A stretch of DNA of 20,000 nucleotides, taken from NCBI GenBank assembly GCA_026129095.1, contig JAHCIT010000003.1:356524-376523 (forward strand), given 5' to 3'. A program made the position numbers and the translations under genes. Numbering within the stretch: the stretch's first letter is position 1; each line of letters starts with the position of its first letter. The stretch is from Deltaproteobacteria bacterium (GTDB lineage Bacteria; JAGRBM01; JAHCIT01). Under the pieces are notes generated by a model. The model had not been told where the DNA came from. It ran no database searches and saw nothing but the letters and a program-made list of their open reading frames with translations. Of this stretch, positions 2,248 through 20,000 are shown piece by piece.

Positions 2248-3045
2248 ATGAGCGTTTACAGCAAGCCATCAAGAAAGGGCGGCCTGTTCAGTGATCTCGG
2301 CAAATACCGCGAGATGCTGTTCTCGCGCAGCAGCATGCTGCCAGACGGGATCATGGACCGGCTCCTGTCAGCGAAGAACCTGCTCGTCACCATCGACAAC
2401 CCGTGGAACTCCGACATCGAGCAGGGGATCAATGCGCTCATCAATACCACCCTGTCCAGAAATCCCGTGAGCGACGCTGAGGTGGCCTCAAAGGCGCACC
2501 CCGCCCTGTGGTCAATGTACAAGGAGCGGTACGATCCGCCGGTCGATCTTGCCCGTCTGGAGAAGCTCCCCGACGGCACCCTGGGACGAACCTACGCCCG
2601 GTTCATGTCGGACAACGGCATCCAGCAGCTGCAAAGCATGGTAAAAATCCGGCAGCCCCGGAACTTCAGCGAATGGGTCATCCGGCGGGCCTACAAGCTG
2701 CACGATGTAATGCACGCCATACTGGGCTGCGACGCCGAGATCATGGGGGAAGTCAGGATCAATGCATGGTCGGCCGGTCAGGCGATGGCGGATGCTACGC
2801 TTCAGGGAAAAGGCCGCCAGGGAGCCGGCTCTCATGGGTTCATGGGTGTTGGCGTGCTTCTCATGCACGTCGCCTACAAGCGCGGGCAGGATTTCCCCGA
2901 GGCTCTCTCGCTTGCCGTCGAGTGGCTGGAGCGCGGCAGGAAGGATCCGTTCCACATACCGCTCAAGGTCGAGGAGCTGTGGGAAATGCCCCTTGGCGAT
3001 GTGAGGGAGTTCTACCGGTCCGGGCGGTTTCTAGCAGCAGACTAA
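2248..3045 (+). CDS. Coq4-family (ubiquinone biosynthesis COQ4-like) metal-binding protein
   Basis: LxxLPDGTLGRTYARFM segment plus HDVMH-x11-E (HDVMHAILGCDAEIMGE), the Coq4 metal-ligand motif. C-terminal EELWEMPLGDVR. RBS AAGGAG precedes the ATG. Confidence 0.85.
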   Translation: MSVYSKPSRKGGLFSDLGKYREMLFSRSSMLPDGIMDRLLSAKNLLVTIDNPWNSDIEQGINALINTTLSRNPVSDAEVASKAHPALWSMYKERYDPPVDLARLEKLPDGTLGRTYARFMSDNGIQQLQSMVKIRQPRNFSEWVIRRAYKLHDVMHAILGCDAEIMGEVRINAWSAGQAMADATLQGKGRQGAGSHGFMGVGVLLMHVAYKRGQDFPEALSLAVEWLERGRKDPFHIPLKVEELWEMPLGDVREFYRSGRFLAAD

Positions 3046-3088: not shown

Positions 3089-4510
3089 CTACGCCGCGAG
3101 TTCCTCCTGGCCAGCCGCACTGCCAAGGGGGATATCCACCGTTACGGTTGTACCGCGCCCCTCCTCACTGTCGAGACCGATACTTCCTCCAGCCCGGTGC
3201 ACAAGTTCGTTTACCACGTACAGACCCAGGCCGACATTCCCGCTAGCCCCCTCACCCGTAATGAATGGCTTGAAGATCTCTGCCTGGAGTGCCTTTGGAA
3301 TGCCCCGGCCCGTATCTGAAATCTTCAGCCGGAGCGAATGGCCATGTAATGATGCCGCGAGCCTGGGTTCCTGTGCGCCGCCTGCTCCACGGGCATTATC
3401 CAGCAGGTTCCGGAGCATGGTGAGTGTCATCCGCTCATTGACGGGAGCCTGGTCCACGCCCGCCTCCGTATGAACAGCAATACCGGGATACTCGGACCGG
3501 ATCGTGTCGAGGATAGTGGACAACGGCCGCGACGAGTCTTCAGGAGCCAGCAGGTCGGCCAAAAGATACAAACGGCTGGCAATATTCGCCGCCCTCGCCT
3601 GCCCTGACAGGCAACTATCAATGCTTTGCAGGACTTCCCGCTTCTGGGAAGCCGTGGCACCCGACTGCTCGACATCCTCCTTCAGCATCTGGAACAAGGC
3701 CCCGCTGGATGAAAGCGGGTTCCGGAGCTCATGGGCGGCACCCGTTACCAGCGAACCCATCGCTGCCAGCGACTCGGCACGCACCAACTGGTCCTTCTGT
3801 TCCCGAAGGAGTGCGTATGCCGCTTTCAACTGCTCCTCCCGCTTTCGCCACTGTTCGACCAGATATATCGCAAAGACGAACATACTGAGCTGGAACACCG
3901 TTACCCAACTTCCCGTGAACAACAGCCAGGAAGAGTGAAGCCTTCCGTCAATCACCAGATCGTCCCGCATTAGCGGAGCGTACGGGAACCACCCAAACTG
4001 CGAACCCGCAATGGAAATCGCCTGGAATGAGACGCCCGTAACAACCGCATAAACAACCGGACGGATTCCAAACAGCAGCCCGCCCAGGAGCACTCCTGAT
4101 ATTCCAAACAAGACCGCATAGGGAGTGGTGAACAGCCCGAAACCGTGTGCCGCCAGCATGGTATGAACGGTGCATAGCTGAATGACTGTATGCATCATCA
4201 CTGTTTCGAGAGATTTCACCTTGCGCACCGCAAAACAGATCATCGCCAGAACTGCCCATCCGGCAATGAACCCCATCTCGATCTGGTCGGCGACATGTGC
4301 CGCAGCCGGTTCAAGATATGGTGCCCGCAAGGGATCAGCCAGCAACCATTTGAACATCAACCCGTGCGCACCCGAAAGACCGAGACAGATCACCGAAGCC
4401 AGCGCCGTCCGGTCCCCGAGGCTCCACTCCAGCAGGTTGCTGAACTTCTGGCTAACCCCATCAAGAAACGACTTCCCGCTGAAAGCGGCTTTCGAAACAC
4501 CACTCATCAC
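3089..4510 (-). CDS. Membrane-bound sensor histidine kinase (multi-TM sensor, HisKA, HATPase_c), H-box intact
   Basis: About 6 hydrophobic segments; H-box GAAHELRNPL; N-box LRNLLDNA; G1 DTGRGI; F-box IFKPF; G2 GLGL. Start is either GTG 4510 or the adjacent ATG 4507. Confidence 0.93.
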   Translation of the reverse strand: MMSGVSKAAFSGKSFLDGVSQKFSNLLEWSLGDRTALASVICLGLSGAHGLMFKWLLADPLRAPYLEPAAAHVADQIEMGFIAGWAVLAMICFAVRKVKSLETVMMHTVIQLCTVHTMLAAHGFGLFTTPYAVLFGISGVLLGGLLFGIRPVVYAVVTGVSFQAISIAGSQFGWFPYAPLMRDDLVIDGRLHSSWLLFTGSWVTVFQLSMFVFAIYLVEQWRKREEQLKAAYALLREQKDQLVRAESLAAMGSLVTGAAHELRNPLSSSGALFQMLKEDVEQSGATASQKREVLQSIDSCLSGQARAANIASRLYLLADLLAPEDSSRPLSTILDTIRSEYPGIAVHTEAGVDQAPVNERMTLTMLRNLLDNARGAGGAQEPRLAASLHGHSLRLKISDTGRGIPKALQAEIFKPFITGEGASGNVGLGLYVVNELVHRAGGSIGLDSEEGRGTTVTVDIPLGSAAGQEELAA

Positions 4511-4513
4511 CCG

Positions 4514-5923
4514 TCACATCCCATGCGGTGCTCCATCTACGGGAAGCAGTATTGAAACCGAAGTGCCGCGGCCTGCCTGGCTTTGCAGATCGATGGTCCC
4601 CCCGGCCCGATGGACCAGTTCATGAACGATGTACAGTCCAAGCCCCAATCCGTGTCCCTCACCAGCCTTCTGTCCGGTAAAAAACGGCTTGAACACCTCG
4701 CTTTGCATCGCCTCCGGGATTCCTCTCCCCGAATCACTGACCCTGATATCCAGGAAGCGATCCGCCAGCGACGCCACAACCCTCGGCGGCGTGTCCCCAC
4801 CTGCGGCAACTGCGTTCTTCAGAAGATTCCGGAGAACCGTTGCAACCAGCCGTTCATTGACTGGTACCGAAGCTGCCTGCGGCGATACCTGAAATACAGA
4901 TTGCGGGTAGTCGCTCCGGATAAGGTTCATGACCGCATCCAGTGGATGGCTTTCACCCCCCGGAGCAAGCGCTTCTGCGATCGAGTTCAGCCTGCCAGCA
5001 ATATCCGCTGCACGCTCATGCCCTTTCAGCGACATCTCGACAATCCGCAGCGCTTCCGATTTCTGGGATTCGGGAGCATCTGATGCGGCGATATCTGTCC
5101 GGAGCTTCTGGAAACTCGTCCGGGCGAAATCGAGCGGACGCTGCAACTCCCTGGCCGCTCCCGATACCAGTGAACCGACCGCCGCAAGCGATTCGGCCCT
5201 GACCAGCTGGGTTTTCTGCTCACGCAGCAGCACGTATGCAGCCTCAAGCCGTTCCTGCCGGCCTCTCCACTGGGACAGGATGTAGAGGCCGACCACCATC
5301 GTCGCAACCTGGCAAATCGTCACCCAGCTACCTGTCAGGACGAGCCAGGAAACCGGGAGGCGTTCATTAATGACCGGAGTTCCACGCAATAACGGAGCAT
5401 AGGGGAACCAGCCGTTCTGGCTGCCGATGGTCGACAGGACCTGGATCGCGACCCCCGTCAGCACGCCATAACTCACTGGCCTGACGCCCATGAGGAGCAC
5501 GCCCAGCAGCATTCCACACACACCGAAAAGAACCCCATAGGGCGCAGTGAACAGCCCGAAGGCATGTCCAACCAGCATGGTATGCACGGTGAAAAGCTGG
5601 GCCGTCAGGTATACCAGCGGCTGGCCAAGAATCCGGAGCCTGTCAGACCGCGCCGCCAGGCAAATGCCCAGGAATACGGCCCATATCACAACGAATGCGT
5701 TCTGGAGATTTCTCGCAAATAACGCCGCCTGAGGTTCCATGTACGGAGCCCGGGACGAATCCTCGACAAGCCAGTAAAAATATACCGCCCAGGAGAACGC
5801 AAGACCGAGACAGGTCCCGCAGGCAAGCGCCGCCTTGCCGGCAGGGCTCCACTCCAGCGGATTACCAATCCGCTGGATCAGGGAGTCAACTGCACCTGAT
5901 GAAGCTGACGGCTTTTCGGGCAT
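4514..5923 (-). CDS. Membrane-bound histidine-kinase-like protein, paralog of the downstream gene, lacking the phospho-acceptor His (putative pseudokinase)
   Basis: Same architecture and shared motifs (LEWS, RAPY, FGLFTxPY, GWFPYAPL, QLVRAESLAA). H-box reads GAARELQRPL. N (LRNLLKNA), G1 (DSGRGI), F (VFKPF) and G2 (GLGLGL) boxes are intact. Confidence 0.9.
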   Translation of the reverse strand: MPEKPSASSGAVDSLIQRIGNPLEWSPAGKAALACGTCLGLAFSWAVYFYWLVEDSSRAPYMEPQAALFARNLQNAFVVIWAVFLGICLAARSDRLRILGQPLVYLTAQLFTVHTMLVGHAFGLFTAPYGVLFGVCGMLLGVLLMGVRPVSYGVLTGVAIQVLSTIGSQNGWFPYAPLLRGTPVINERLPVSWLVLTGSWVTICQVATMVVGLYILSQWRGRQERLEAAYVLLREQKTQLVRAESLAAVGSLVSGAARELQRPLDFARTSFQKLRTDIAASDAPESQKSEALRIVEMSLKGHERAADIAGRLNSIAEALAPGGESHPLDAVMNLIRSDYPQSVFQVSPQAASVPVNERLVATVLRNLLKNAVAAGGDTPPRVVASLADRFLDIRVSDSGRGIPEAMQSEVFKPFFTGQKAGEGHGLGLGLYIVHELVHRAGGTIDLQSQAGRGTSVSILLPVDGAPHGM

Positions 5924-8427: not shown

Positions 8428-9165
8428 TTAGGCGGTCAGTTCCGCTTCGATCATCCGGTGCGCGCTGGTCATCAGGCGGCCGGCGGCTTCAGCGTCATTC
8501 CCGTCCGGATGGACAGGCGGCAGCACCACAATCGTCACCCTGCCCGGTTCGTGACCGAGCCTGCGGCCAAGAACGCCGGGCCCGAGTGCCGGATGTTCCT
8601 CGACAACCGCTACCGGAACGACCGGAACATTGCAGGCGACAGCCAGTTCAAACGCCCCGCGCCTGAATTCACCCAGGATTTTCCCGGTGGGCCGCTTCCC
8701 TTCCGGATACATGAGAATTGAAGTTCCACGTTCCAGGAGCGGCCGGCACTGCCGGATCAGATCGGCCGTCGTGGCCCGGCGCGGCAGAAAGAGCTGTCCC
8801 GTTTTCGCCGAGAAATACCCGCCAAGAGGGAATTTTCGCAAGTCAGCCCGGATCACGGCCCGCCAGTCCAGCCGCACAAAATGCGTAAACAGGTACCAGT
8901 CCCACTCGCTGCCGTGATTGGAGACGTACACGGCGGGTGTGTCCGGATGTACATGCTCAAGCCCGCGTGCCGACGCATTGATCCCGCAGCCCCGGAGCAC
9001 TCCGCCGGACCACAGGCGGCTCAGATGCTCATAACCCCATTCCGGCGTCTTGCCGGCCGCGAAAAAAACGCTCGCCACAGCGCCGACACCGGCCGTGACG
9101 CCGGCGATGACCGACATTCTCTGAAGCGTACGGACGGTTTTTGCCGGTGAATGGGGCCTGCTCAT
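8428..9165 (-). CDS. 1-acyl-sn-glycerol-3-phosphate acyltransferase (PlsC/lysophospholipid acyltransferase family)
   Basis: Block I NHGSEWD (HxxxxD), block III YPEGKR, FRRGAF and VPVVPV. Start set at ATG 9165, which overlaps the upstream TGA (ATGA coupling). Confidence 0.88.
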   Translation of the reverse strand: MSRPHSPAKTVRTLQRMSVIAGVTAGVGAVASVFFAAGKTPEWGYEHLSRLWSGGVLRGCGINASARGLEHVHPDTPAVYVSNHGSEWDWYLFTHFVRLDWRAVIRADLRKFPLGGYFSAKTGQLFLPRRATTADLIRQCRPLLERGTSILMYPEGKRPTGKILGEFRRGAFELAVACNVPVVPVAVVEEHPALGPGVLGRRLGHEPGRVTIVVLPPVHPDGNDAEAAGRLMTSAHRMIEAELTA

Positions 9166-10313
9166 GGCAGCGTCTCCAGCCGGACCGTCCACGGGGACGG
9201 CTGTTCATCCAGCGACCGGGCGAGAGCCGCGGCGAACTCCGGCTTCCGGAGTGCCTCGTACCAGTCCGGACCACCCAGAACCGCCAGGTTCTGGACCAGC
9301 GATACCGTTCCGGCCCCGCCGGCCGCCTCGCTCCAGTTCTTGTCGATCTGCCTGATCCGGTAACCGGCAATGGCTCGTCCGCTGTCCGTATGGACATACA
9401 GCATCGGCCGCAGATGCACCGCCGGACCAGGAAGTTCGAGCCAATGCAGGATCGCACCGGCCGGATTTGCCAGCAGGATCCAGTCGTAAGGAAGTTCTTC
9501 CTCCACCCGGACGGCCGGGCGGAGCGATCTGCCACCGGGCAGAAGCATTTCCGTACCTTGCGGCAGATCGAAACCGTTACGCAGCGTGACATCGGCTCCG
9601 AGCTGCATGATCAGTTGCGGAATCGCCAGTTCCACTTTCTGCAAGATGGTGTTTCCGCACACGAGCATATTCTGCGGATGTGGATCGACATAACGCACCA
9701 ACGCCCTCACCGATGCATCCGAGCGGCGCAGCGCACACTGCGAACCGGTCTCGAGCGATTTCACTTGCCACCGGAAATCACCCTCGTCGCGGTACACCTT
9801 GACAAGACCGAACAACCGGGCGTCAAACTGCAGTTTCAATGCGTCGATTATATTCAGGCTCACGCCGGTCATCCGGAGATTGCTGAAGAACCCGGAGCCG
9901 CCGGGGAAATCCAGTCCGAAGACAGGACCGTGCATCGCCCCGGCTTCGAGCCGGTAAGCGCTCTGGACGCTTTCGCCTTCGACGAGAAAGCCTTCCCGGC
10001 GGTCGCCGCCGGAACCGGCCACGACACGCCATCTGGCACCCGGGGGGATTTCGCTCCCGGCCGGGCCCAGGCCGCCTGCGCGAAAATGCAGATCGTACGC
10101 TGCCGGCTTGCGGCCGGGGACCTCGAACGTGTCCACATCGATATCGGTCCACCCGTCAGGGCTCCGGGTGCGTATCTTCCATGGACCGGGAGCGGCCATT
10201 TCTGCCGACACATGATCGAATATCCGGGTGCGGGTAAAATCGGCGGGATTCATGGATGGGCCTTCTCCGTTGGCTACGGCGGCGAGCAGGATCACGGCGG
10301 CTAGAGGGCCCAC
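9162..10313 (-). CDS. Hypothetical protein, possibly exported
   Basis: Long ORF sandwiched between and overlapping the PAP2 and PlsC genes. The likely start is GTG 10313 (MGPLAAVILLAAVA..., signal-like), alternatively ATG 10253. The track's 10562 start overlaps the PAP2 gene. No family recognised. Confidence 0.65.
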   Translation of the reverse strand: MGPLAAVILLAAVANGEGPSMNPADFTRTRIFDHVSAEMAAPGPWKIRTRSPDGWTDIDVDTFEVPGRKPAAYDLHFRAGGLGPAGSEIPPGARWRVVAGSGGDRREGFLVEGESVQSAYRLEAGAMHGPVFGLDFPGGSGFFSNLRMTGVSLNIIDALKLQFDARLFGLVKVYRDEGDFRWQVKSLETGSQCALRRSDASVRALVRYVDPHPQNMLVCGNTILQKVELAIPQLIMQLGADVTLRNGFDLPQGTEMLLPGGRSLRPAVRVEEELPYDWILLANPAGAILHWLELPGPAVHLRPMLYVHTDSGRAIAGYRIRQIDKNWSEAAGGAGTVSLVQNLAVLGGPDWYEALRKPEFAAALARSLDEQPSPWTVRLETLP

Positions 10314-10927
10314 ACGACACCCCGGCGGCGGAACTCCGGCTCGACGACCCGGAAGTGAATGGTCAGGGCGAGTCCCGCACCGGCCAGCCCGTCGACCAGG
10401 AAATGCCGCTTGAGCAGCAGCGTGCTGGCGAACACTAGCGTCCAGATCAGCAACGCGGCGAGTGACACCCAGTGCGACACTTTCAGCAGCGAAAGGCAGG
10501 CCAGCGTCGCCATGGCGACATGCAGCGACGGGAAGGCGTTCCAGCCCCGGTCGTCCAGCCACGGAAGTCTCGGGAGCAGGAAACCGTCAATCGGACCCGT
10601 GGCGGGTGGCGGAATGCACCGCACGGGCACCAGATAAAACAGCGAGAAACAGATAGCCATCGCCAGAAGATAGGCGGCAGCCCCCCGGCGGACGAAGTGC
10701 ATCTCATGGAACGGAATTGCGGGACCGAGAATGATCACATATCCCAGCGTGTAGGGAATCGCCGCCCATCCCGCATAGGGAATAAACGATTCGACGCCAA
10801 TCGACAGATCGTAACCGTCCCGTTCGCCGAGTATCCGGGGAATGCCGAGATATCCAGTCACGAACACGACGCCAACAGATGCCGCCCAGAACAGGAACTC
10901 CGGACTGAACCGGGAACCGGCGGCCAT
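10301..10927 (-). CDS. PAP2-superfamily membrane phosphoesterase/phosphotransferase (Aur1/Ipt1-like, PAP2_3)
   Basis: Multi-TM protein with NAFPSLHVA (C2) and KRHFLVDGLAG (C3) motifs. Start chosen at ATG 10927 (AAAGGA 10 nt upstream). Alternative starts are 10954 and 11008. Confidence 0.85.
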   Translation of the reverse strand: MAAGSRFSPEFLFWAASVGVVFVTGYLGIPRILGERDGYDLSIGVESFIPYAGWAAIPYTLGYVIILGPAIPFHEMHFVRRGAAAYLLAMAICFSLFYLVPVRCIPPPATGPIDGFLLPRLPWLDDRGWNAFPSLHVAMATLACLSLLKVSHWVSLAALLIWTLVFASTLLLKRHFLVDGLAGAGLALTIHFRVVEPEFRRRGVVWAL

Positions 10928-10989: not shown

Positions 10990-11241
10990 GTGGAAAGCGC
11001 CAGTCCAAAGGCCCTGGGCCGGATTTCCTGTGAACTGCGTCCTAACCTGTTTGTGAGGAACGGAGCCGTCGGATATTCCCTGGTGTTCCCGTTCGACATG
11101 ATTGCCGAAGGCAACAAAGACGGTGATTGGCGGGCAGCGGGTGACGACCTTGGAACCTTCTGCCTTGACCATGCCGCCGAACTCAACGAAACCGATGCGC
11201 TTATCAGGGAGTTTCTGGTGACCGCTGACAACGCAGCCTGA
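10990..11241 (+). CDS. Small hypothetical protein (83 aa)
   Basis: GTG start preceded by GGAGG (10976-10980) at 9-nt spacing. Protein-like composition. Divergent from the PAP2 gene. No homolog recognised. Confidence 0.45.
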   Translation: MESASPKALGRISCELRPNLFVRNGAVGYSLVFPFDMIAEGNKDGDWRAAGDDLGTFCLDHAAELNETDALIREFLVTADNAA

Positions 11242-11377: not shown

Positions 11378-11446
11378 AAGCCCCCACCAACCCCTAACTA
11401 TTCTTCTTTTTCCAAAGAGAAATGAATAGTTACATGGTGGGGGCTT
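11378..11446. repeat. Long imperfect inverted repeat (cruciform/hairpin)
   Basis: AAGCCCCCACCA (11378-11389) pairs with TGGTGGGGGCTT (11435-11446). TAACTATTC (11395-11403) pairs with GAATAGTTA (11424-11432). An inner pyrimidine/purine stem lies between them. Confidence 0.85.
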
Positions 11447-12039
11447 GGGTGAGTGCCGGGTGATCGCTCCGTGAGGGTCAGGTTGGAGCGCAAAGGGCGT
11501 TTTTCATGGACCACCTTGGACGCTTGAATCTGTTCGTCGGCAAAAGGCTCTGGATATCAACGGGTTGGCAGTGAAGCAAGGCGCGGCGAAAATCCCGGTT
11601 GGTGGGTAGTGTGGCCTGAAAATTACCCCTGCTTTGGAGCCGATAAACTGCGGCACGACGATGGTCTGGTTTGGATTTCGGCCAAGGTCCAGTACTCAGT
11701 AGCCTTTGGTTTCGTAACTGGACGTGGCAAAAGTCGTCGCTGGCAACGGGGAATGTCGGCTGCGGTTCGGCTCTGGCGGCGACATCAATCGGCACGGGTC
11801 AGTTTCCGGGAAAATCACGGGGCGTAATATCTCATGTGGGACTTCCCCAGCCCGAATAAAAGCGGATACCGGCCACCGAGTGACATATTCTGTCACGACC
11901 GTGGCTTACCATGGCCTTTTGGGTATTTTCGTAGCCAAAAAGTCGTTGCGGAAACCAGTTGATACTCGCCCAAGTTCACTAAAGAATTGGTGCCAAACCA
12001 GAGCGCAGCTATTTAATGCAAAGGGGGAGCGCAGGGTCC

Positions 12040-15000
12040 GTGAAACAGGCTGTTATTGAAAATCCTATCCTGAACTCCCCGTTCAAGGAGCCCGACCGGC
12101 ATTTCCGTTTTACCGACGAAGGTATCACGAACGAGATCGTCGACGGCCGCCGGAACAGTACCTATTTTGTTCCGATCCCCCAGCCCAAGAGGGGCAAGAA
12201 ACAGCTCTCGCTCGATACCCAGTGGACTGCCGACCGGATAGAGGAGAACAAGCTCGTCAACCGGATTCGCCCGCAGATCTACAAATGGCGCCAGGGCGGA
12301 TACATCGGCGTAACCCGGACCACGGCCCGGCTGCTCGAATACTGGAACGATCCCGAGCGCTCCAAGCGGCTCTTCTTCTGCCAGATCGAAGCGCTTGAAA
12401 CCGCCATCTACATCACCGAAGTCGCCAGCAAGTACGATCCCTGGATCGAGAACGAGCTTCGGCACGCAAGCGAAGAGGCTAACCCGCTCCTCTTCCGGAT
12501 CGCGTTCAAGATGGCGACTGGCAGCGGCAAAACGGTCGTCATGGCGATGCTCATTGCCTGGCAGGCGTTGAACAAGATCACCAATTCCCAGGATGCACGG
12601 TTCTCCGACGCCTTCCTGCTTGTCGCGCCGGGTATCACGATCCGGGATCGGCTTCGGGTGCTGCTGCCCAGTGAACCGGACAACTACTACCGTGAACGGG
12701 ATATCTGCCAGCCGGAAGACCGGGCTCAGCTCCAGAAAGCCAAAATCGTCATTACCAACTATCACACCTTTAAACGGCGCGAGATCGGCGATGTCTCGAA
12801 ACTGGGCAAGGCAATCCTCAAGTCAGAAGCGTTTACTGAGACGCCTGCCCAGATGGTTCGCCGCGTTTGCAGGGAGCTGGGGAACAAGAAGAATCTCATC
12901 GTCATCAATGACGAGGCACACCACTGTTACCGGGAGAATGTCGCGGTCGCCGAAGAGGCCCTGTCTGGCGAAGACCGCAGGGATGCCGAAGAACGGGCCG
13001 AAGCGGCCCGTATCTGGATCAGCGGCCTGGAGGCGGTGAAACAGAAGTTGGGCGTTCGGGCTGTCTACGACCTGTCGGCGACCCCGTTTTTCCTGCGCGG
13101 ATCCGGTTATCCGGAAGGCACGCTGTTCCCGTGGGTAGTGTCTGATTTTTCGCTCATCGACGCCATCGAGAGCGGGATTGTGAAGATCCCTCGTGTGCCG
13201 GTCGCCGACGATTCCATGGTCGGCGAACAGCCCACCTATCGCGACCTCTGGCTCCACATCCGGGAAAACCAGCTGCTCCCGAAGAAAGGCCGTGCCGAAA
13301 CCGAACGGAAAGGCGCGCCCGAGCTGCCCATGGGACTGGAGGGTGCGATCCGGAGCCTCTACGACCACTATAAGAAGTATTACGAGACGTGGGAGCAGGA
13401 TAAACAGGCGCAGCTTGCGGGGCGCACGCCGCCTGTATTTATCGTCGTCTGTGCGAATACGGCCATTTCAAAACTGGTCTACGACTACATCTCTGGCTGG
13501 GACACCGGAAAAACGACTCCCGCTGGCTCGCCGATCTGGGCAGACGGCGCACTACCGCTATTCAGTAATACGAAAGACGGCCAGCCGGGCGGTCATCAGA
13601 ACACGATTCTCGTGGACAGCAGCCAGCTCGAATCGGGCGAACCGCTGAAGGACGATTTCAAGAAGCTAGCGGCCCGTGAGATCGAGGATTTCAAGCACGA
13701 GTACGCGAGACGGCATCACCAGAACGCCGAAGATGTGACCGACGGCGACATCCTCCGCGAGGTGATGAACACGGTCGGCAAGCCTGGCAAACTGGGCGAG
13801 AAAGTCCGGTGCGTGGTGTCGGTATCCATGCTCACGGAAGGCTGGGACACCAACACCGTCACCCATATCCTGGGCGTGCGGGCGTTCAGCACACAGCTTC
13901 TGTGCGAGCAGGTGGTGGGCCGCGGACTCCGCCGGATGAGCTATGCGGAGAACACCGAAGGCAAGTTCGAGCCTGAATACGCCGAAGTCTACGGCGTCCC
14001 GTTCTCGTTCATCCCGACGGTGGCGAAACCGGCACTCTCCCTGATGCTGAAGCGCACGCGGGTTCACGCCATCGAGGACCGGCGTGAGCAATGCGAGATC
14101 ACGTTCCCCCGTCTTGAAGGCTACCGGTACGACCTGCCCGGAGAAAAACTCACGGCCCGATTCGACGAAAAGGCCCGAATGTCCGTCTCGACGCAGGATG
14201 TGCCGTCGTTCACGGAAGTACAGCCCATCGTCGGCGAGGGAAGCGTTCACACGCAGGAAGATCTGAAGTCCCGCCGCGAACAGGAGGTCGCCTTCCTGCT
14301 GGCCAAGCTGGTGCTTGAGAAATATTTCCGGCAGGACGGCGAGATCCAGAAGGACCGCCCGGCCGAGCACCGGTTCGACTCGTCCGTCCAGGCGTGGCTC
14401 TTCCCGCAGGTGCTCCGGATCGCGCGGCAGTGGATGGAGCAGTGTCTCCAGCTCAAGGACGACACCTTTCCGCAACTGCTCCTGCTGATCCAGCTTGCGC
14501 ACGAAGCCTCGGACAAGATCTACGGGGCAATCGTCCGGTCGGCTGACGGAGAAAAGCGGATCGTTCCGCGCCTGAAGCCTTTCGACACGGTGGGCAGCAC
14601 GGCAATCGTCGATTTCGATACGTCCAAAGAGGTCTGGACGACCGATCCCGCCAAGTGCCACGTCTCGCATGTGTCGGCCGACAGCGGCTGGGAGCAGAAG
14701 ATGGCCCAGTCACTGGAGACGATGGACGAGGTGGTCTCCTACGTGAAGAACCAGGGGCTCAACTTCACGATACCCTACCTGATAAACGGTCAGGAGAAGA
14801 ACTACGTTCCGGACTTCATCGTCCGTATCCGTGACGAGGCCGGCATAGAGCCGCTCAACCTGATTGTCGAGGTCACCGGCCAGAACAAGAAGGACAAGGA
14901 GCAGAAGGTCGCCACCGCCCGCGACCTCTGGATACCCGCGGTCAACAATCACGACGGGTTTGGGCGTTGGGGGTTCATTGAAATCAGGGATCCTTGGAAT

Positions 15001-15060
15001 GCGAAGACCGAAATCAGAGAATTCCTGCAACGGTACCAAGGCGCTGGAGTCGCCGCGTAA
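12040..15060 (+). CDS. Type III restriction-modification Res-like subunit (SF2 DEAH helicase/ATPase with C-terminal PD-(D/E)xK-like nuclease; resembles the BPTD_3080-type family)
   Basis: Walker A FKMATGSGKT, Walker B INDEAHH, motif III LSATP, SVSMLTEGWD, EQVVGRGLRR, and C-terminal YVPDFIV...VEVTG. Start revised to GTG 12040 (MKQAVIENPILNSPF; GGGGAG RBS upstream). The track start is 12016. Confidence 0.92.
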   Translation: MKQAVIENPILNSPFKEPDRHFRFTDEGITNEIVDGRRNSTYFVPIPQPKRGKKQLSLDTQWTADRIEENKLVNRIRPQIYKWRQGGYIGVTRTTARLLEYWNDPERSKRLFFCQIEALETAIYITEVASKYDPWIENELRHASEEANPLLFRIAFKMATGSGKTVVMAMLIAWQALNKITNSQDARFSDAFLLVAPGITIRDRLRVLLPSEPDNYYRERDICQPEDRAQLQKAKIVITNYHTFKRREIGDVSKLGKAILKSEAFTETPAQMVRRVCRELGNKKNLIVINDEAHHCYRENVAVAEEALSGEDRRDAEERAEAARIWISGLEAVKQKLGVRAVYDLSATPFFLRGSGYPEGTLFPWVVSDFSLIDAIESGIVKIPRVPVADDSMVGEQPTYRDLWLHIRENQLLPKKGRAETERKGAPELPMGLEGAIRSLYDHYKKYYETWEQDKQAQLAGRTPPVFIVVCANTAISKLVYDYISGWDTGKTTPAGSPIWADGALPLFSNTKDGQPGGHQNTILVDSSQLESGEPLKDDFKKLAAREIEDFKHEYARRHHQNAEDVTDGDILREVMNTVGKPGKLGEKVRCVVSVSMLTEGWDTNTVTHILGVRAFSTQLLCEQVVGRGLRRMSYAENTEGKFEPEYAEVYGVPFSFIPTVAKPALSLMLKRTRVHAIEDRREQCEITFPRLEGYRYDLPGEKLTARFDEKARMSVSTQDVPSFTEVQPIVGEGSVHTQEDLKSRREQEVAFLLAKLVLEKYFRQDGEIQKDRPAEHRFDSSVQAWLFPQVLRIARQWMEQCLQLKDDTFPQLLLLIQLAHEASDKIYGAIVRSADGEKRIVPRLKPFDTVGSTAIVDFDTSKEVWTTDPAKCHVSHVSADSGWEQKMAQSLETMDEVVSYVKNQGLNFTIPYLINGQEKNYVPDFIVRIRDEAGIEPLNLIVEVTGQNKKDKEQKVATARDLWIPAVNNHDGFGRWGFIEIRDPWNAKTEIREFLQRYQGAGVAA

Positions 15061-15069
15061 GAGATTACG

Positions 15070-16872
15070 ATGAGCACCAAAGAAACCACTATCCAAGTAT
15101 CGCCGAGGATATTTGACCATCTCGGCCTCGCAGCATACGAGAGTCTCAAAAAATGCTTGGCTGAATTGGCAGCCAATTCATATGACGCCGACGCCACCGA
15201 AGTGCGAATACACGTTCCAGTACAGTTGGAGGGAGGTTCGGTCATTAAGGTCACTGATAATGGCGAAGGAATGACCGCCGATCAGATCGAAAAGTCCTAT
15301 CTTTTTATCGGGCGGGATCGGCGCACGTTGGGGCAACGAACATCAGGCACCAAATCAGGTAGGCCTAGATTAGTTATTGGGAGTAAGGGGATCGGTAAGC
15401 TCGCGGGCTTTGGTGTGTCATCTCAACTCCGATTGATATCAGTTCGCACAGGCATGAAGTCCACAGTCACTCTCGATCGGCATCATTTCGACGATCTTAA
15501 AACCCTTGCAGATCAGAAAGTCGTAATCGAGACAGCGCCTACGGATGCAGCGGATGGCACATCTGTCGAACTTCATAATCCCAATTCTCAACTCTCCGTC
15601 CCCGATGAAGCTACTATTCGCCGACACCTATTTCGTGTTTTGCCGAATACCCCGGATTTTCGTGTCTACGTGAACGAAAAGGAATGTACAGCTGACGCTC
15701 TTGAAGGGACGCGAACACCATTTGACCAAGAAATTCCGAGCGTCGGGAGAGTACATGGTTTCTATGTAATCGCAGGGAACCGACTACCGAATTTTGGTAT
15801 GGCCGTCCGGGTGCGGGGTCGTTTGGTTAAGGAGCCAAATCTTTTCGGCATTGACACGACGAAACATTGGTTCTTTTCCACGAACCGGATTTACGGTGAA
15901 ATCAACGCTGATTTTCTTGATCCCGAGGATGGAGAAAATCGCGCACATGATGTCATCAATACTAGTCGAGATGGGTTCTTGGAGGATTCTCCGGTCGTCC
16001 AGAAGTTTGAGGAGTGGGTTCGGGAGTTTTTAATAAGAATATTCAGAGCGATCGAAGACGCCGAAGAAAAAAAGCGTGAATCAGTTGTTTTAAAAAATCC
16101 TGAATATGAAGCGAGACTGAACAAACTTCCGGCCCATGTTAAATCAACCGCAGAGCGTGTTGCTCGAACAGTATTTTCTAAACTCAAAAGCGTTGACCAA
16201 GACCAAGCCTCAGAGCTGATCGATTGGATATTGAAATATTACGAGTCGAACGTCTTGCGTGAGTTGATAAGTGCTATCGTGAAGGCCGACACGAAAGATG
16301 TCGCAATATTGTCGGAGATGATAAGAGAGTGGGGCTTACAGCAGGTCAATGGGGTTGTTGAGCATGTCAAGGATCAGATCAGCATCATAAAGCGGCTTGA
16401 AGATTTGATCTCCGACGACACGGCGGAAGAAATAGATTTGCATAAACTCGTTGAGAATAACCTTTGGCTAGTTCGGCAGGGTTTGGAGCTTTGGAGTTCT
16501 GACAAACCACTAAAAACTGTTTTGGATAAAAAAGTTGACGAAAATTATAAGGACTACGCAGATATTCGCCCGGATATCGTATGTCGTTCAAGAGATGAAG
16601 GGCGACAAGCCGTTGTTCTTGAATTCAAACGCCCCAAGGAAAAGATCAGACCAGAACATATTACCCAAGCCATGACGTACGAAGGGATTATTGCGGCCCA
16701 CAGACCTGGCATAATCTTTGAGACCTACGTGATTGGTCGGCAATACGATCCCGCTGTTCTTGCCGTGAAGGAAAAACAAGCGAAGGCTGGGAACCATCTA
16801 GTTTCCTATGAACACCTGCTTCAGGGAGCTCGGAACCGCTTTGAAACAATCTTAGAATTACTCGGCCAGTAG
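15070..16872 (+). CDS. GHKL (MORC/MutL/Hsp90-like) ATPase fused to a C-terminal PD-(D/E)xK nuclease
   Basis: GHKL motifs AELAANSYDADA, DNGEGM, GSKGIGKLAGF and GTSV, then a predicted helical/coiled-coil middle. C-terminal EIDLHKLVENNLWL...RPDIVC...VLEFKRP...QAMTY. Confidence 0.85.
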   Translation: MSTKETTIQVSPRIFDHLGLAAYESLKKCLAELAANSYDADATEVRIHVPVQLEGGSVIKVTDNGEGMTADQIEKSYLFIGRDRRTLGQRTSGTKSGRPRLVIGSKGIGKLAGFGVSSQLRLISVRTGMKSTVTLDRHHFDDLKTLADQKVVIETAPTDAADGTSVELHNPNSQLSVPDEATIRRHLFRVLPNTPDFRVYVNEKECTADALEGTRTPFDQEIPSVGRVHGFYVIAGNRLPNFGMAVRVRGRLVKEPNLFGIDTTKHWFFSTNRIYGEINADFLDPEDGENRAHDVINTSRDGFLEDSPVVQKFEEWVREFLIRIFRAIEDAEEKKRESVVLKNPEYEARLNKLPAHVKSTAERVARTVFSKLKSVDQDQASELIDWILKYYESNVLRELISAIVKADTKDVAILSEMIREWGLQQVNGVVEHVKDQISIIKRLEDLISDDTAEEIDLHKLVENNLWLVRQGLELWSSDKPLKTVLDKKVDENYKDYADIRPDIVCRSRDEGRQAVVLEFKRPKEKIRPEHITQAMTYEGIIAAHRPGIIFETYVIGRQYDPAVLAVKEKQAKAGNHLVSYEHLLQGARNRFETILELLGQ

Positions 16873-16908
16873 TTTCCTACGCGCTCAAATTTAAGGATCA
16901 CACAGTTA

Positions 16909-19725
16909 ATGCCTCCCAAGAAGACCCCAATATCCTCATCCTCTCCGTCTCTACCGATCGAGTCCGTACGTCACAAGGACAAGCGGGCGAACATCCCGAC
17001 GGAGGAGCTGAAGGATTTCATCAAGGACGACGAGAAGGCTCCGAAGTCCATGCTCTACCCGCGCGATCCGTCGCTGGATCCGCAGTTGGTCTGGAAGGGG
17101 AAGGACGAGCAGGACGCCAAGGACCTCGAAGTGCCGGTGGTGCCGGTTTACATACAGGAGAAGATCCATCCGCAGGCGCTGATCGAGGATTTCCGCAGTT
17201 CCGCCAGAACGGGCGGGCCGGCGCAGGCGTCTCTGTTCAGCGACTTCAACGGGATCGCCTTTGAAGACCTGATCGAGTTCTACCAGCACGAGCAGAACTG
17301 GACGAACCGCATGATCCTGGGCGATTCACTACTCGTGATGACATCGCTGGCCGAAAAGGAAGGGCTCAAGGGCAAGGTCCAGACGATCTTCATGGACCCG
17401 CCGTACGGCATCAAGTTCGGTTCAAACTGGCAAGTTTCAACGCGCAAGCGGGATCTAAATGATGGCAAAAGTGAGGATGTCACCCGCCAACCGGAACAGA
17501 TTCGCGCATTCCGGGATACCTGGGAACTCGGCATTCATTCGTACCTTTCTTATTTGCGCGACCGCTTTGTGGTCGGGCACGAGTTACTGAACGAATCGGG
17601 TACGATCTTTGTGCAAATCGGTGATGCCAATCTTCATATCGTTCGTTGTTTGTTGGATGAAGTATTCGGGAGCGAAAACCATGTCGCGACGGTTCCGTTT
17701 GTTAAGACGAGCGGGTCAACCAAAGACTACTTGCCCGGAACGATCGATTTCATTCTTTTTTACGCGAAGAACTCTGAGCGTCTTAAGTTCCGGAACCTCT
17801 ACCACGTCAAGGAAGTCGGTGGACTGGGTGGGTCGGCATATAACCGAATTGTTGCACAAGACGGTAGCCGTAGAACGTTCAAAAGTGACGAAAAATCTGG
17901 TCGCGTGGACCTGCCCGCACACGCCCGAGTCTACCGCCTCGACAATCTAACGAGCCAAAGTATGGGACGCGAAAAGGGGGAGGGGGCTGCGTCGTGGTTT
18001 CCAGTCCAACTTAACGGGGAAGAATATCGACCCAGCATAAAGGCCCGGTGGAAAACTAATGAAAGCGGGATGAGCAATCTCTTAAGGGCCGAACGTCTAG
18101 AAGCGACGGACACGAGTTTATATTACGTTCGGTATTTTGATGATTTTCGTGCTTTTCCTGTGAGTGATATTTGGCAAGATACCGTGGTGGCCGGTTTCGC
18201 GTCCGACAAACAGTACGTTGTGGAAACGTCCGCAAAGGTTATTGAACGGTGTTTATTGATGAGCACCGATCCGGGTGATCTCGTTGTTGATCCAACTTGC
18301 GGTAGTGGCACCACCGCCTATGTCGCTGAACAGTGGGGCCGCCGGTGGATCACGATGGATACGAGCCGGGTGGCGCTGGCGCTCGCTCGAACGCGCCTAA
18401 TGGCCGCCAAGTTCCCGTACTACTTTTTGGCCGACTCCAAAGACGGCATCCAGAAGGAAGCTGAAGCCACCGGCAAAGTTCCGCCCGACTACAAGACCGA
18501 GAACGATATCCGCAAGGGGTTTGTCTACAAGCGCGTTCCGCACGTTACGCTGAAGGCGATTGCGAACAATGAAGAGATCGACCCGATCTGGGACAAATGG
18601 GCCGTCAAGATCGACCCGGTGCGGAAAACCCTCGGGACTGTCATCAAGAAGAAATGGGAAGAGTGGGAAGTCCCGCGAGAGGCCGAAGGAGCATGGCCGT
18701 CCGAGGCGAAAAAGCTCCACGAGGAGTTCTGGCGGATGCGCCGGGAACGACAGCAGGAGATCGACGCCTCCATTGCCCGTCGCGCCGACGTGGAACTGCT
18801 CTACGACCAGCCCGAAGAGGACAAGAAGCGGGTTCGCGTGACTGGCCCGTTCACGGTCGAGAGCCTCTCGCCCCACCGCGTGCTGGCGACCGACGAGGAA
18901 CAGCCCCGCTCTGTCACCGACGGCCAGAAGTCCGACATGGGTGGCCAGTTCCATGTGATGATCCTGGAGAACCTGAAGAAGGCCGGCGTCCAGAACACCG
19001 TGAAAGAGGAACGGCTCAAGTTCGACCGGCTGGAGCCCCACGCGGGCGTCTGGATCCAGGGTGCCGGCGAATACACCGACAAGGACGGCAAATCCCGCCG
19101 CGTGGCGGTGGCGGTCGGGCCCCAGTACGGAACCGTAAATCGCGAACTGATCAAGGACGCGGCTCTTGAGGCCGTCAAGGGAATCGGGTTCGACCTGCTG
19201 GTCGTTTGCGGCTTTGCCTTCGAGGCGCAGACGGGCGAAGAGCCTCACAAACCCTACGGCAAGCTCCAGATTCTGCTCGCCCGTATGAACCCCGATCTGC
19301 TCATGGGCGAAGAGCTGCTTAAGAAGACGGGCACCGGCAACCTGTTCATGGTGTTCGGCGAACCGGACGTGAAGATCGTGACCGGCAAGGACGGCCGCGT
19401 CACGGTCGAGATCAAGGGTGTAGATGTCTACGACCCGACCACAGGCCAGATCCGCAACAGCTCGACCGACGACATCGCCTGCTGGTTTATCGACACCAAC
19501 TACAATGGCGAGAGCTTCTTCGTCCGGCACGCCTACTTCACGGGGGCACAGGAGCCCTACGACAAGCTCAAACGCGCCATGCGGGCGGAGATCGACGAAG
19601 CCGCCTGGTCGGCGCTCTATTCAACCAGGAGCCGGCCCTTCGATCCCCCCAAGACGAAGAAGATCGCTATCAAGGTGATCAACCACTACGGCGACGAAGT
19701 ACTGAAGGTGTATGAGGTGAAGTGA
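16909..19725 (+). CDS. Type III RM Mod-like site-specific DNA methyltransferase (amino-MTase, beta order; probably m6A)
   Basis: Catalytic motif IV FMDPPY (DPPY at 17395-17406) precedes SAM-binding motif I VVDPTCGSGTT (~18283-18315). Typical termini RDPSLDPQLVWKGKDEQD and KIAIKVINHYGDEVLKV. AAGGA RBS. Confidence 0.93.
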   Translation: MPPKKTPISSSSPSLPIESVRHKDKRANIPTEELKDFIKDDEKAPKSMLYPRDPSLDPQLVWKGKDEQDAKDLEVPVVPVYIQEKIHPQALIEDFRSSARTGGPAQASLFSDFNGIAFEDLIEFYQHEQNWTNRMILGDSLLVMTSLAEKEGLKGKVQTIFMDPPYGIKFGSNWQVSTRKRDLNDGKSEDVTRQPEQIRAFRDTWELGIHSYLSYLRDRFVVGHELLNESGTIFVQIGDANLHIVRCLLDEVFGSENHVATVPFVKTSGSTKDYLPGTIDFILFYAKNSERLKFRNLYHVKEVGGLGGSAYNRIVAQDGSRRTFKSDEKSGRVDLPAHARVYRLDNLTSQSMGREKGEGAASWFPVQLNGEEYRPSIKARWKTNESGMSNLLRAERLEATDTSLYYVRYFDDFRAFPVSDIWQDTVVAGFASDKQYVVETSAKVIERCLLMSTDPGDLVVDPTCGSGTTAYVAEQWGRRWITMDTSRVALALARTRLMAAKFPYYFLADSKDGIQKEAEATGKVPPDYKTENDIRKGFVYKRVPHVTLKAIANNEEIDPIWDKWAVKIDPVRKTLGTVIKKKWEEWEVPREAEGAWPSEAKKLHEEFWRMRRERQQEIDASIARRADVELLYDQPEEDKKRVRVTGPFTVESLSPHRVLATDEEQPRSVTDGQKSDMGGQFHVMILENLKKAGVQNTVKEERLKFDRLEPHAGVWIQGAGEYTDKDGKSRRVAVAVGPQYGTVNRELIKDAALEAVKGIGFDLLVVCGFAFEAQTGEEPHKPYGKLQILLARMNPDLLMGEELLKKTGTGNLFMVFGEPDVKIVTGKDGRVTVEIKGVDVYDPTTGQIRNSSTDDIACWFIDTNYNGESFFVRHAYFTGAQEPYDKLKRAMRAEIDEAAWSALYSTRSRPFDPPKTKKIAIKVINHYGDEVLKVYEVK

Positions 19726-20000
19726 TGGGCTCTAAAAAATTATGGGAAGAATTCGACCAGTTAGTGAAATCGCTTCAACACGAATCTGAACGTGTAGATG
19801 ATGCGGCAAAACGTCGAGCAGGGACAATAGATAGATCAAAAGATCTATTCGAAGATGGCCGGGGGAAAATTATCGGCTCAATTCAAGCTGCCGGTCATAA
19901 CACGATGAAGCTGGAAGAGATCACGAATATAGATGATCTTGAGAAAGAGATAATACGAACAGTTGGTAAGCTTAGTCCGGACGACGTTATGGAACCTGGC
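19725..20000 (+). CDS. Hypothetical protein, 5' part (runs off the window), translationally coupled to mod
   Basis: ATG overlaps the mod stop (TGATG). The frame is open for 92 codons to the window end: MGSKKLWEEFDQLVKSLQHESERVDDAAKRRAGTIDRSKDLFEDGRGKIIGSIQAAGHNTMKLEEITNIDDLEKEIIRTVGKLSPDDVMEPG. AT-rich. Not in the ORF track. Confidence 0.75.
   Translation, partial: MGSKKLWEEFDQLVKSLQHESERVDDAAKRRAGTIDRSKDLFEDGRGKIIGSIQAAGHNTMKLEEITNIDDLEKEIIRTVGKLSPDDVMEPG

Follow-up and report, generated by a model that had tools for sequence, protein, structure and literature searches.

A paraMORC3-type GHKL ATPase-nuclease gene between the res and mod genes of a Type III-like restriction-modification system: a probable stand-alone defence gene in a variable slot

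Does a nuclease gene that sits between the res and mod genes of a restriction-modification (RM) system work with that system, or does it only reside there? The question is raised by a 20,000-nucleotide (nt) stretch of a Deltaproteobacteria genome (assembly GCA_026129095.1, contig JAHCIT010000003.1, positions 356,524 to 376,523), called the window below; positions without a prefix refer to it, and the prefix L marks comparison loci. From position 12040 on it contains four open reading frames (ORFs), all on the plus strand: res and mod of a Type III-like RM system of the BPTD_3080 family, between them a gene for a GHKL ATPase with a nuclease domain (15070-16872, 600 amino acids (aa)), and a fourth gene at the window edge. 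The gaps are 9 nt between res and the GHKL gene and 36 nt between the latter and mod, which overlaps gene 4 by 1 nt. The preliminary description had given the same layout, and its coordinates proved exact on recomputation. It considered the four genes as a composite defence operon, in which the GHKL protein may either guard or back up Res and Mod or serve as an additional cleavage subunit.

The distribution of the genes does not support such a system. Relatives of the GHKL protein were collected by scanning GTDB, one genome per species, with two exact peptide patterns. The resulting sample is small, 27 loci, and covers many phyla, archaea included. Res is present at none of these loci, and a Mod-like gene at one, about 8 kb away and with 20% identity. 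In the other direction, tblastn with the Res protein produced 39 plasmid records, of which 23 were fetched by rank and organism diversity; 22 of them have a linked mod, and in this small, plasmid-only sample no res-mod pair encloses a GHKL gene. A conserved res-GHKL-mod system was therefore rejected. The operon layout and the embedded gene are real, but the composite system has no co-occurrence support, and these four genes are best regarded as a transient association.

A further suggestion of the preliminary description, that the GHKL gene occupies a variable slot of the RM locus, is borne out by the same plasmids. The slot is filled in 9 of the 22 pairs and empty in 13, counting as empty one locus (L052) where a small annotated ORF looks by eye like a split N-terminus of mod. 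The cargoes are unrelated to each other and to the GHKL gene: DUF4209/PDC-S39 in the closest homolog, a PDC-S70 toxin-antitoxin (TA) pair, the Type IV enzyme GmrSD with an unmatched gene (L038), NOV_C, DUF3800, and four unmatched genes. Empty and filled slots are interleaved on the Res tree. It is a genuine slot, and a promiscuous one. Those slot genes that match nothing in Pfam or PADLOC (L033:12153-12674, L035:11996-12919, L036:4401-4820, L056:5080-6144 and L038:11923-12738) are candidate new defence genes. No further slots came from the E. coli genomes and phages searched, where Res had no match. The position immediately 3' of mod varies as well, with CBASS in L033, a dCTP deaminase in L032, and a 3'-5' exonuclease/UvrD in L037 and L052.

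The base composition of the GHKL gene sets it apart from its surroundings. The GC counts of 24 and 23 per 60 nt in this gene and 39 per 60 nt in res, made by hand for the preliminary description, were reproduced exactly. These segments are near the extremes, the means being 28.3 and 35.7 per 60 nt, but the difference holds gene-wide (GC content 0.471 in the GHKL gene and 0.596 in res). At third codon positions (GC3) the values are 0.47 and 0.775 (Fisher p=4e-35), and those of eight upstream host genes lie between 0.65 and 0.79. Thus the gene has a different source from res and the host genes, in agreement with the earlier claim that it was acquired separately. Moreover, the GC content of family members is below that of the flanks in all 23 loci measured (four partial or distant loci of the 27 were omitted). 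Low GC is a trait of the family at every site, and so it marks mobility and is no tie to the RM system of the window. Co-transcription of the gene with res and mod is suggested by the spacing alone; a promoter and terminator scan yielded nothing above shuffle level. As to marks of mobile elements, there was no tRNA or tmRNA and no Rfam match, no repeat pair among those listed brackets the GHKL gene, and tRNAs occur near relatives at only two of the 17 loci of its close clade (at least 48% identity).

The GHKL protein consists of three parts. Its Pfam matches are HATPase_c_3 (71 bits, cut-off 25) and HATPase_c, and nothing else. A full-length AlphaFold2 model (57 sequences, pLDDT 78, pTM 0.45) gives approximate boundaries for a GHKL ATPase (about aa 1-210) followed by an S5/transducer domain (about aa 211-330; both parts at 15070-16059). 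A helical middle part or stalk (about aa 331-448; 16060-16413) was delineated by DSSP on the model, and a PD-(D/E)XK nuclease domain from the neighbourhood of Shedu and NucS (16414-16869) by a separate domain model, fold matches and motifs. The best structural match of the model, over aa 19-329, is the ATPase module of MORC3 (Z 18.6, rmsd 4.1, 280 residues aligned), and aa 12-332 match the N-terminal domain of MutL (Z 16.7); these two matches identify the N-terminal half as GHKL plus S5. The segment aa 243-253 partly resembles, by eye, the S5 motif GhXhhpXXRhl of MORC proteins. The C-terminal 195 aa were folded alone with pLDDT 83. Their fold matches are tied: Shedu has Z 10.2 (8ti9: rmsd 3.8, 151 aligned), NucS 9.9, N.BspD6I 9.9 and FokI 9.4, and in Foldseek NucS is the best (E 2e-3), with Shedu at 5e-3. 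A sequence search of PDB returned N-termini of MutL and MORC only, and the C-terminal profile gave no meaningful match. No modified-base reader domain was recognized by Pfam or by the comparison of models and folds.

The ATPase motifs are E32, N36, D63-x-G65-x-G67, G104-x-K106-G107-x-G109-K110 and G163, and the nuclease motifs are E454, P501-D502, E518-x-K520 and Q533-xxx-Y537. In all 119 closest non-identical relatives the entire nuclease set is invariant, as are E32, N36, D63, G65, G104, K106, G107, G109 and G163 of the ATPase and R247, R249, R251, H266, T298 and R300 of the S5 domain. As the catalytic residues are invariant, both the ATPase and the nuclease are probably intact. GHKL, S5 and a nuclease of the restriction-enzyme (RE) fold define paraMORC3, a group of proteins encoded within RM operons or as stand-alone genes (Iyer, Abhiman and Aravind 2008, PMC2292703). 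The C-terminal nuclease of the window protein points to paraMORC3 rather than to MORC proper.

The family is large. With E<=1e-3 there are 903 relatives among 8000 candidates scored, and 649 clusters were recovered at 1e-30 when the full library was searched with a profile. The 119 best non-identical relatives have 49-55% identity and are mostly about 595 aa long. In a FastTree tree (96 sequences, 578 columns, rooted with a member of the BbrUII family, frameshifted and partial loci omitted) the window protein belongs to a clade (support 0.99) that excludes both the longer BbrUII-like proteins and a sister group of about 585 aa; the clade of about 595 aa is also separate from the Dcm-linked branch. 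It is distinct and widespread. ESM Atlas returns clusters with HATPase_c_3, and in some of these 23-71% of the proteins also have SduA_C.

The window protein stays below the cut-offs of two curated families. On NF050001, the family of BbrUII (PMC5829577) and of HgiDII, a GHKL restriction endonuclease (REase; PMC2441816), it scores 188.9 bits with a cut-off of 550, which only one of the 67 proteins scanned passes, a phage control with 751 bits. For SduA_C (DUF4263) of Pfam, the isolated nuclease domain reaches 15.9 bits of the 27 needed and matches positions 3-58 of the 159 in the model; among the matches listed, at least four of the 67 proteins pass, all from the sister group. Thus the protein is a cut-off member of neither BbrUII/HgiDII nor Shedu. 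PADLOC assigns to it two REase_II models only, both over the ATPase part. The phage control (L050:4986-8034) is annotated as 'paraMORC3' and comes from the P2-like phage PhiR44_1, where its gene is convergent with Dcm and lies between gpA and the portal gene; it is a full-length homolog of the window protein (24% identity, 569 columns, E 2e-23).

The preliminary description had named as a refutation that the gene matches a characterized system with this same architecture. This applies by half: the protein architecture has been described (paraMORC3) and a single-gene GHKL nuclease characterized (VcSduA, PMC12137116), but neither the clade of about 595 aa nor its placement between res and mod was found in print by literature searches that covered few subscription papers. 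A term search of a metagenomic defence screen (PMC12366544) gave no hit for GHKL, HATPase, MORC, Shedu or Hsp90, and PMC12191111 contributed nothing further. On the other hand, GHKL is listed among the sensor domains of Shedu 1D (Gu et al., bioRxiv 10.1101/2023.08.10.552793), and Supplementary Table S3 of that study may already include the clade under this name.

The neighbours of the relatives change from locus to locus. All-vs-all clustering of the neighbours at the 27 loci revealed no recurrent co-oriented partner gene; Dcm and Vsr, at three loci and on the opposite strand or divergent, are the sole recurrent ones. Near-sister proteins have differing neighbours (L006 and L011, L001 and L009). 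In the close clade, a DNA methyltransferase (MTase) gene is found within 7 kb at one locus of 17, as part of an NgoMIV-type system on the opposite strand, and none is present at the six loci with 10 kb available on both sides. A TA, HNH, SIR2, TIR or RM gene is among the nearest three ORFs per side at 10 of the 17, a count that comes without a background control. The PADLOC scan of neighbours covered those ORFs of at least 150 aa within 7 kb, 142 of the 249 called, one being omitted for size.

Several individual loci of the wider family deserve description. In a metagenome-assembled Melioribacteraceae genome (L016:8684-12452), a relative with 34% identity is flanked by the genes of an N6/N4 MTase and a Type II REase in otherwise housekeeping surroundings; this is a second case of an RM operon, here of another type, that encloses such a gene. 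In L021:3750-21680 a relative with 27% identity directly follows hsdR-hsdM-hsdS, and then come a UDG-like gene, DruH and a large DEAD helicase, resembling Druantia III. The relatives in L020 and L026 are located by Dcm/Vsr. On two plasmids, relatives with 27% identity are divergent from an adjoining DEAD/DEAH helicase gene, and in L002, L005, L008 and L013 the surroundings are housekeeping genes. Six of the 27 relatives (L011, L012, L014, L017, L019, L022) look frameshifted, split or truncated, and may be pseudogenes or assembly errors.

Taken together, these data suggest, with a probability of roughly 0.6, that the GHKL protein is a stand-alone homodimeric clamp nuclease that gates DNA with ATP, recognizes a structural target and takes from the RM system no more than a transcript to land in. 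The gene would be a self-sufficient, mobile, single-gene anti-phage or anti-plasmid nuclease of the paraMORC3 design that landed between res and mod, is co-expressed with both and depends on neither. The precedent is VcSduA, a GHKL-Shedu protein that provides non-abortive phage defence alone and needs the ATPase residue E27 and the nuclease residue K557; its architecture was equated with paraMORC3/Shedu I-D (Adams et al. 2025, PMC12137116). By analogy with MutL, MORC and Hsp90 on the one hand and VcSduA on the other, the protein may form a homodimer whose N-terminal gate is shut around duplex DNA by ATP binding. The invariant arginines of S5 are candidate DNA contacts or an ATPase finger. ATP hydrolysis would then license the pair of C-terminal nucleases to nick or cut the invading DNA, and the cell would survive. 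Self and non-self might be told apart by DNA structure, that is, by ends or by intermediates of replication and recombination, as EcSduA senses DNA ends (PMC12904381). This is the weakest step; structural discrimination is the most likely mode since the clade usually lacks a methyltransferase.

A number of observations weigh against the stand-alone clamp nuclease. The GTDB sample is small, and at 7 of the 17 close-clade loci one flank is shorter than 2.2 kb. No defence-type neighbour is seen at 7 of these 17. For all 67 proteins scanned the highest-ranking NCBIfam family is NF050001, which consists of methylase-linked restriction enzymes. The wider family does have an affinity for RM loci: RM genes are beside its members in 6 of the 27 loci (L001, L016, L018, where the case is weak, L020, L021 and L026). 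Finally, no experiment on the clade was found, and the window protein is not an evident orthologue of VcSduA, as its SduA_C score is below the cut-off and the N-terminal motifs differ by eye.

In a different reading, the protein is an ATP-dependent restriction enzyme that responds to the methylation state of DNA. It would either resemble BbrUII/HgiDII and cut an unmethylated site, which a host methylase encoded elsewhere protects, or be a Type IV-like cutter of modified DNA that can do without a methylase and complements the RM system. BbrUII/HgiDII is indeed the closest named family, a true member of it, the phage 'paraMORC3' beside Dcm, is similar over 569 columns with 24% identity, sister clades are linked to MTases (MTase-GHKL-REase_II in L016, Dcm and Vsr in L020), and the slot itself is taken by a Type IV enzyme, GmrSD, in L038. 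However, 189 bits is far from the 550 needed, 16 of the 17 close relatives have no adjoining MTase and the methylase next door in the window is a Type III Mod, and a modified-base reader domain is not recognizable. We consider this reading unlikely. A function outside defence, either in MutL/NucS-like repair or recombination or as a selfish passenger, is far less probable still. It would be in line with the tie of NucS/EndoMS for the best nuclease fold, the relatives among housekeeping genes and the repair role suggested for solo paraMORC3 by Iyer et al. (PMC2292703). The patchy spread over distant phyla, the GC content below that of the flanks in 23 of 23 loci, the shifting neighbours and the frequent frameshifts fit a conflict gene instead.

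The embedded position and the tight spacing would suit the guard proposed in the preliminary description, a sentinel that fires when phage anti-restriction proteins inhibit Res and Mod. The model is PrrC, a guard embedded in a Type IC locus whose inhibition it detects (PMC12707154), and distant relatives of the window protein do occur in or beside operons of Type I (L021) and Type II (L016). But a guard needs a conserved partner, whereas none of the 27 relatives is accompanied by Res and none of the 22 res-mod pairs encloses a relative; besides, the characterized analogue VcSduA is non-abortive and independent. Such a function seems improbable. The same zero counts, together with close relatives that are mostly solo genes, make it very improbable that the protein is an extra cleavage subunit or a DNA-looping motor of the RM complex, perhaps offsetting a Res that lacks the motif-III lysine. 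Such a role was proposed for MORC/paraMORC proteins with Type III-like helicases by Iyer et al. (PMC2292703), and the divergent helicase genes beside the two plasmid relatives may be mentioned in its favour, as may the sequence E944-V-T in place of E-x-K in the window Res. The lack of the lysine is no argument, however, because 10 of the 24 Res proteins aligned have E-x-S/T, and in 6 of these 10 cases the slot is empty; compensation of a dead Res nuclease by the GHKL protein was rejected on the same grounds. Fusions with Res or Mod are absent from the 7994 longer candidates (1051-3000 aa), which is weak evidence.

A broader evolutionary proposal is doubtful. The clade of about 595 aa may descend from GHKL restriction enzymes akin to HgiDII and BbrUII and, having lost its methylase, may have turned into an independent ATP-gated DNA clamp nuclease that tells self from non-self in a new manner (by ends, topology or foreign base modification). 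It would then connect Type II restriction with Shedu and with MORC clamps as a surviving intermediate; at the same time, the BPTD_3080-type res-mod junction may be an unmined cargo hotspot for single-gene defences.

The flanking genes are full members of their families. The res gene (12040-15060, plus strand, 1006 aa) has a GTG start, from the first residue of which the five best plasmid homologs align; an alternative ATG is at 12016. The encoded helicase-nuclease scores 1174 bits (cut-off 800) with NF046055, the BPTD_3080 family of REases, is linked to a Type III Mod, and also matches ResIII and RE_endonuc of Pfam. It contains the SF2 motifs ATGSGKT, DEAH, SAT and QxxGR and a C-terminal nuclease motif PD...E-V-T. 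Motif III is E-V-T-G (aa 944-947; 14869-14880) without the lysine of E-x-K, as in the other E-x-S/T proteins among the 24 aligned family members; a lysine slightly further downstream may replace it.

The mod gene (16909-19725, plus strand) encodes a DNA methyltransferase of 938 aa that matches MTase_III of PADLOC (PDLC03632, 1078 bits) and N6_N4_Mtase of Pfam, with DPPY at 163 and DPxxGSG at 461. The best plasmid homologs have 62% identity for Res and 60% for Mod. The central, target-recognition part of mod (17479-18318, plus strand) has GC3 of 0.54 versus 0.78 and 0.82 in the flanking parts, and the identity of Mod to homologs is 20-45% at aa 291-435 versus 46-74% at aa 56-290; these values suggest that the target-recognition region has probably been swapped. 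Gene 4 (19725-20000, plus strand, GC3 0.37) is represented by 92 codons before the window edge. This AT-rich ORF, which had no useful match in Pfam, PADLOC, NCBIfam, Atlas, the homolog search, the fetched loci or plasmids, is probably a further cargo.

In the non-coding stretch of about 800 nt preceding res there is an imperfect 20-nt inverted repeat (11384-11443) that folds into a long hairpin; on the minus strand a U run comes after it. Its minimum free energy is -36.8 kcal/mol (z -2.86, 0 of 200 shuffles), and it has no match to Rfam or tRNA; possibly it is a terminator or an island boundary. Further upstream, an 83-aa ORF (10990-11241, plus strand) overlaps by 19 nt the start of a PAP2 gene on the other strand, and the start of a 466-aa ORF without Pfam match (9162-10562, minus strand) also overlaps the PAP2 gene. 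Two tandem genes of membrane histidine-kinase-like proteins are located at 3089-5923 on the minus strand, the second without a HisKA match; no response regulator was recognized among the 14 ORFs scanned in the window. A Coq4-like gene (2248-3045) is situated beside a divergent TetR regulator.

GHL proteins with anti-phage activity are few so far (Tiamat preprint, 10.64898/2026.09.30.754977). If the stand-alone clamp nuclease is correct, the short list of nucleases with a GHKL ATPase that act against phages would gain a widespread methylase-free branch, and a compact single-gene enzyme of 600 aa would be an easy handle on the coupling of ATP to cutting and on the avoidance of self DNA in prokaryotic MORC-type clamps. 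The side result may be more useful: since 9 of 22 junctions contain unrelated cargo, 4 without a Pfam or PADLOC match, such junctions offer a source of candidate defence genes. What merits further attention is the clade without a methylase and the slot with its cargoes.

In comparison with known systems, the window Res and Mod are a regular BPTD_3080-type pair whose peculiarity is the cargo, a GHKL nuclease, which is found in 0 of the 22 other pairs. Literature searches, covering few subscription papers, produced no paper that names this family and none on its slot. Like PrrC, the GHKL gene encodes an NTPase-nuclease inside an RM operon; the folds are different, PrrC combining an ABC ATPase with HEPN, and for the clade of the window protein no lasting tie to any single RM type is seen. 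BbrUII/HgiDII is the best NCBIfam family for all 67 relatives and is homologous over most of the length. The window protein differs from it in being about 55 aa shorter, in the score of 189 versus 550 bits and in the absence of a cognate methylase at 16 of 17 loci.

With VcSduA it shares the domain order, the single-gene organization and the catalytic residues of both ATPase and nuclease; Shedu structures are among the tied best matches of its nuclease fold. The spacing of motifs I-II-III is similar to that of B. cereus SduA (E454/D502/E518-K520 versus E204/D249/E264-K266), but the glutamine of motif IV follows the lysine by 13 residues, in a compact QxxxY, instead of 29. SduA_C remains at 15.9 bits, below 27, and the N-terminal motifs are, by eye, unlike those of the seven VcSduA-model hits in Table 7 of Adams et al.; the VcSduA hit table does not include the six plasmid accessions with distant relatives. 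The closest design is that of paraMORC3, for which the accessible part of PMC2292703 offers neither an HMM (hidden Markov model) nor a cut-off, so that the comparison is by architecture and by the one protein annotated as 'paraMORC3' in GenBank. The clade of the window protein is apart from the Dcm-linked branch, and that part of the paper does not mention a paraMORC3 gene sited between res and mod of the BPTD_3080 type. The protein itself has three features of paraMORC3, namely GHKL with intact motifs, S5 and a C-terminal RE-fold nuclease with E-D-ExK, and its family is likewise sporadic and laterally mobile.

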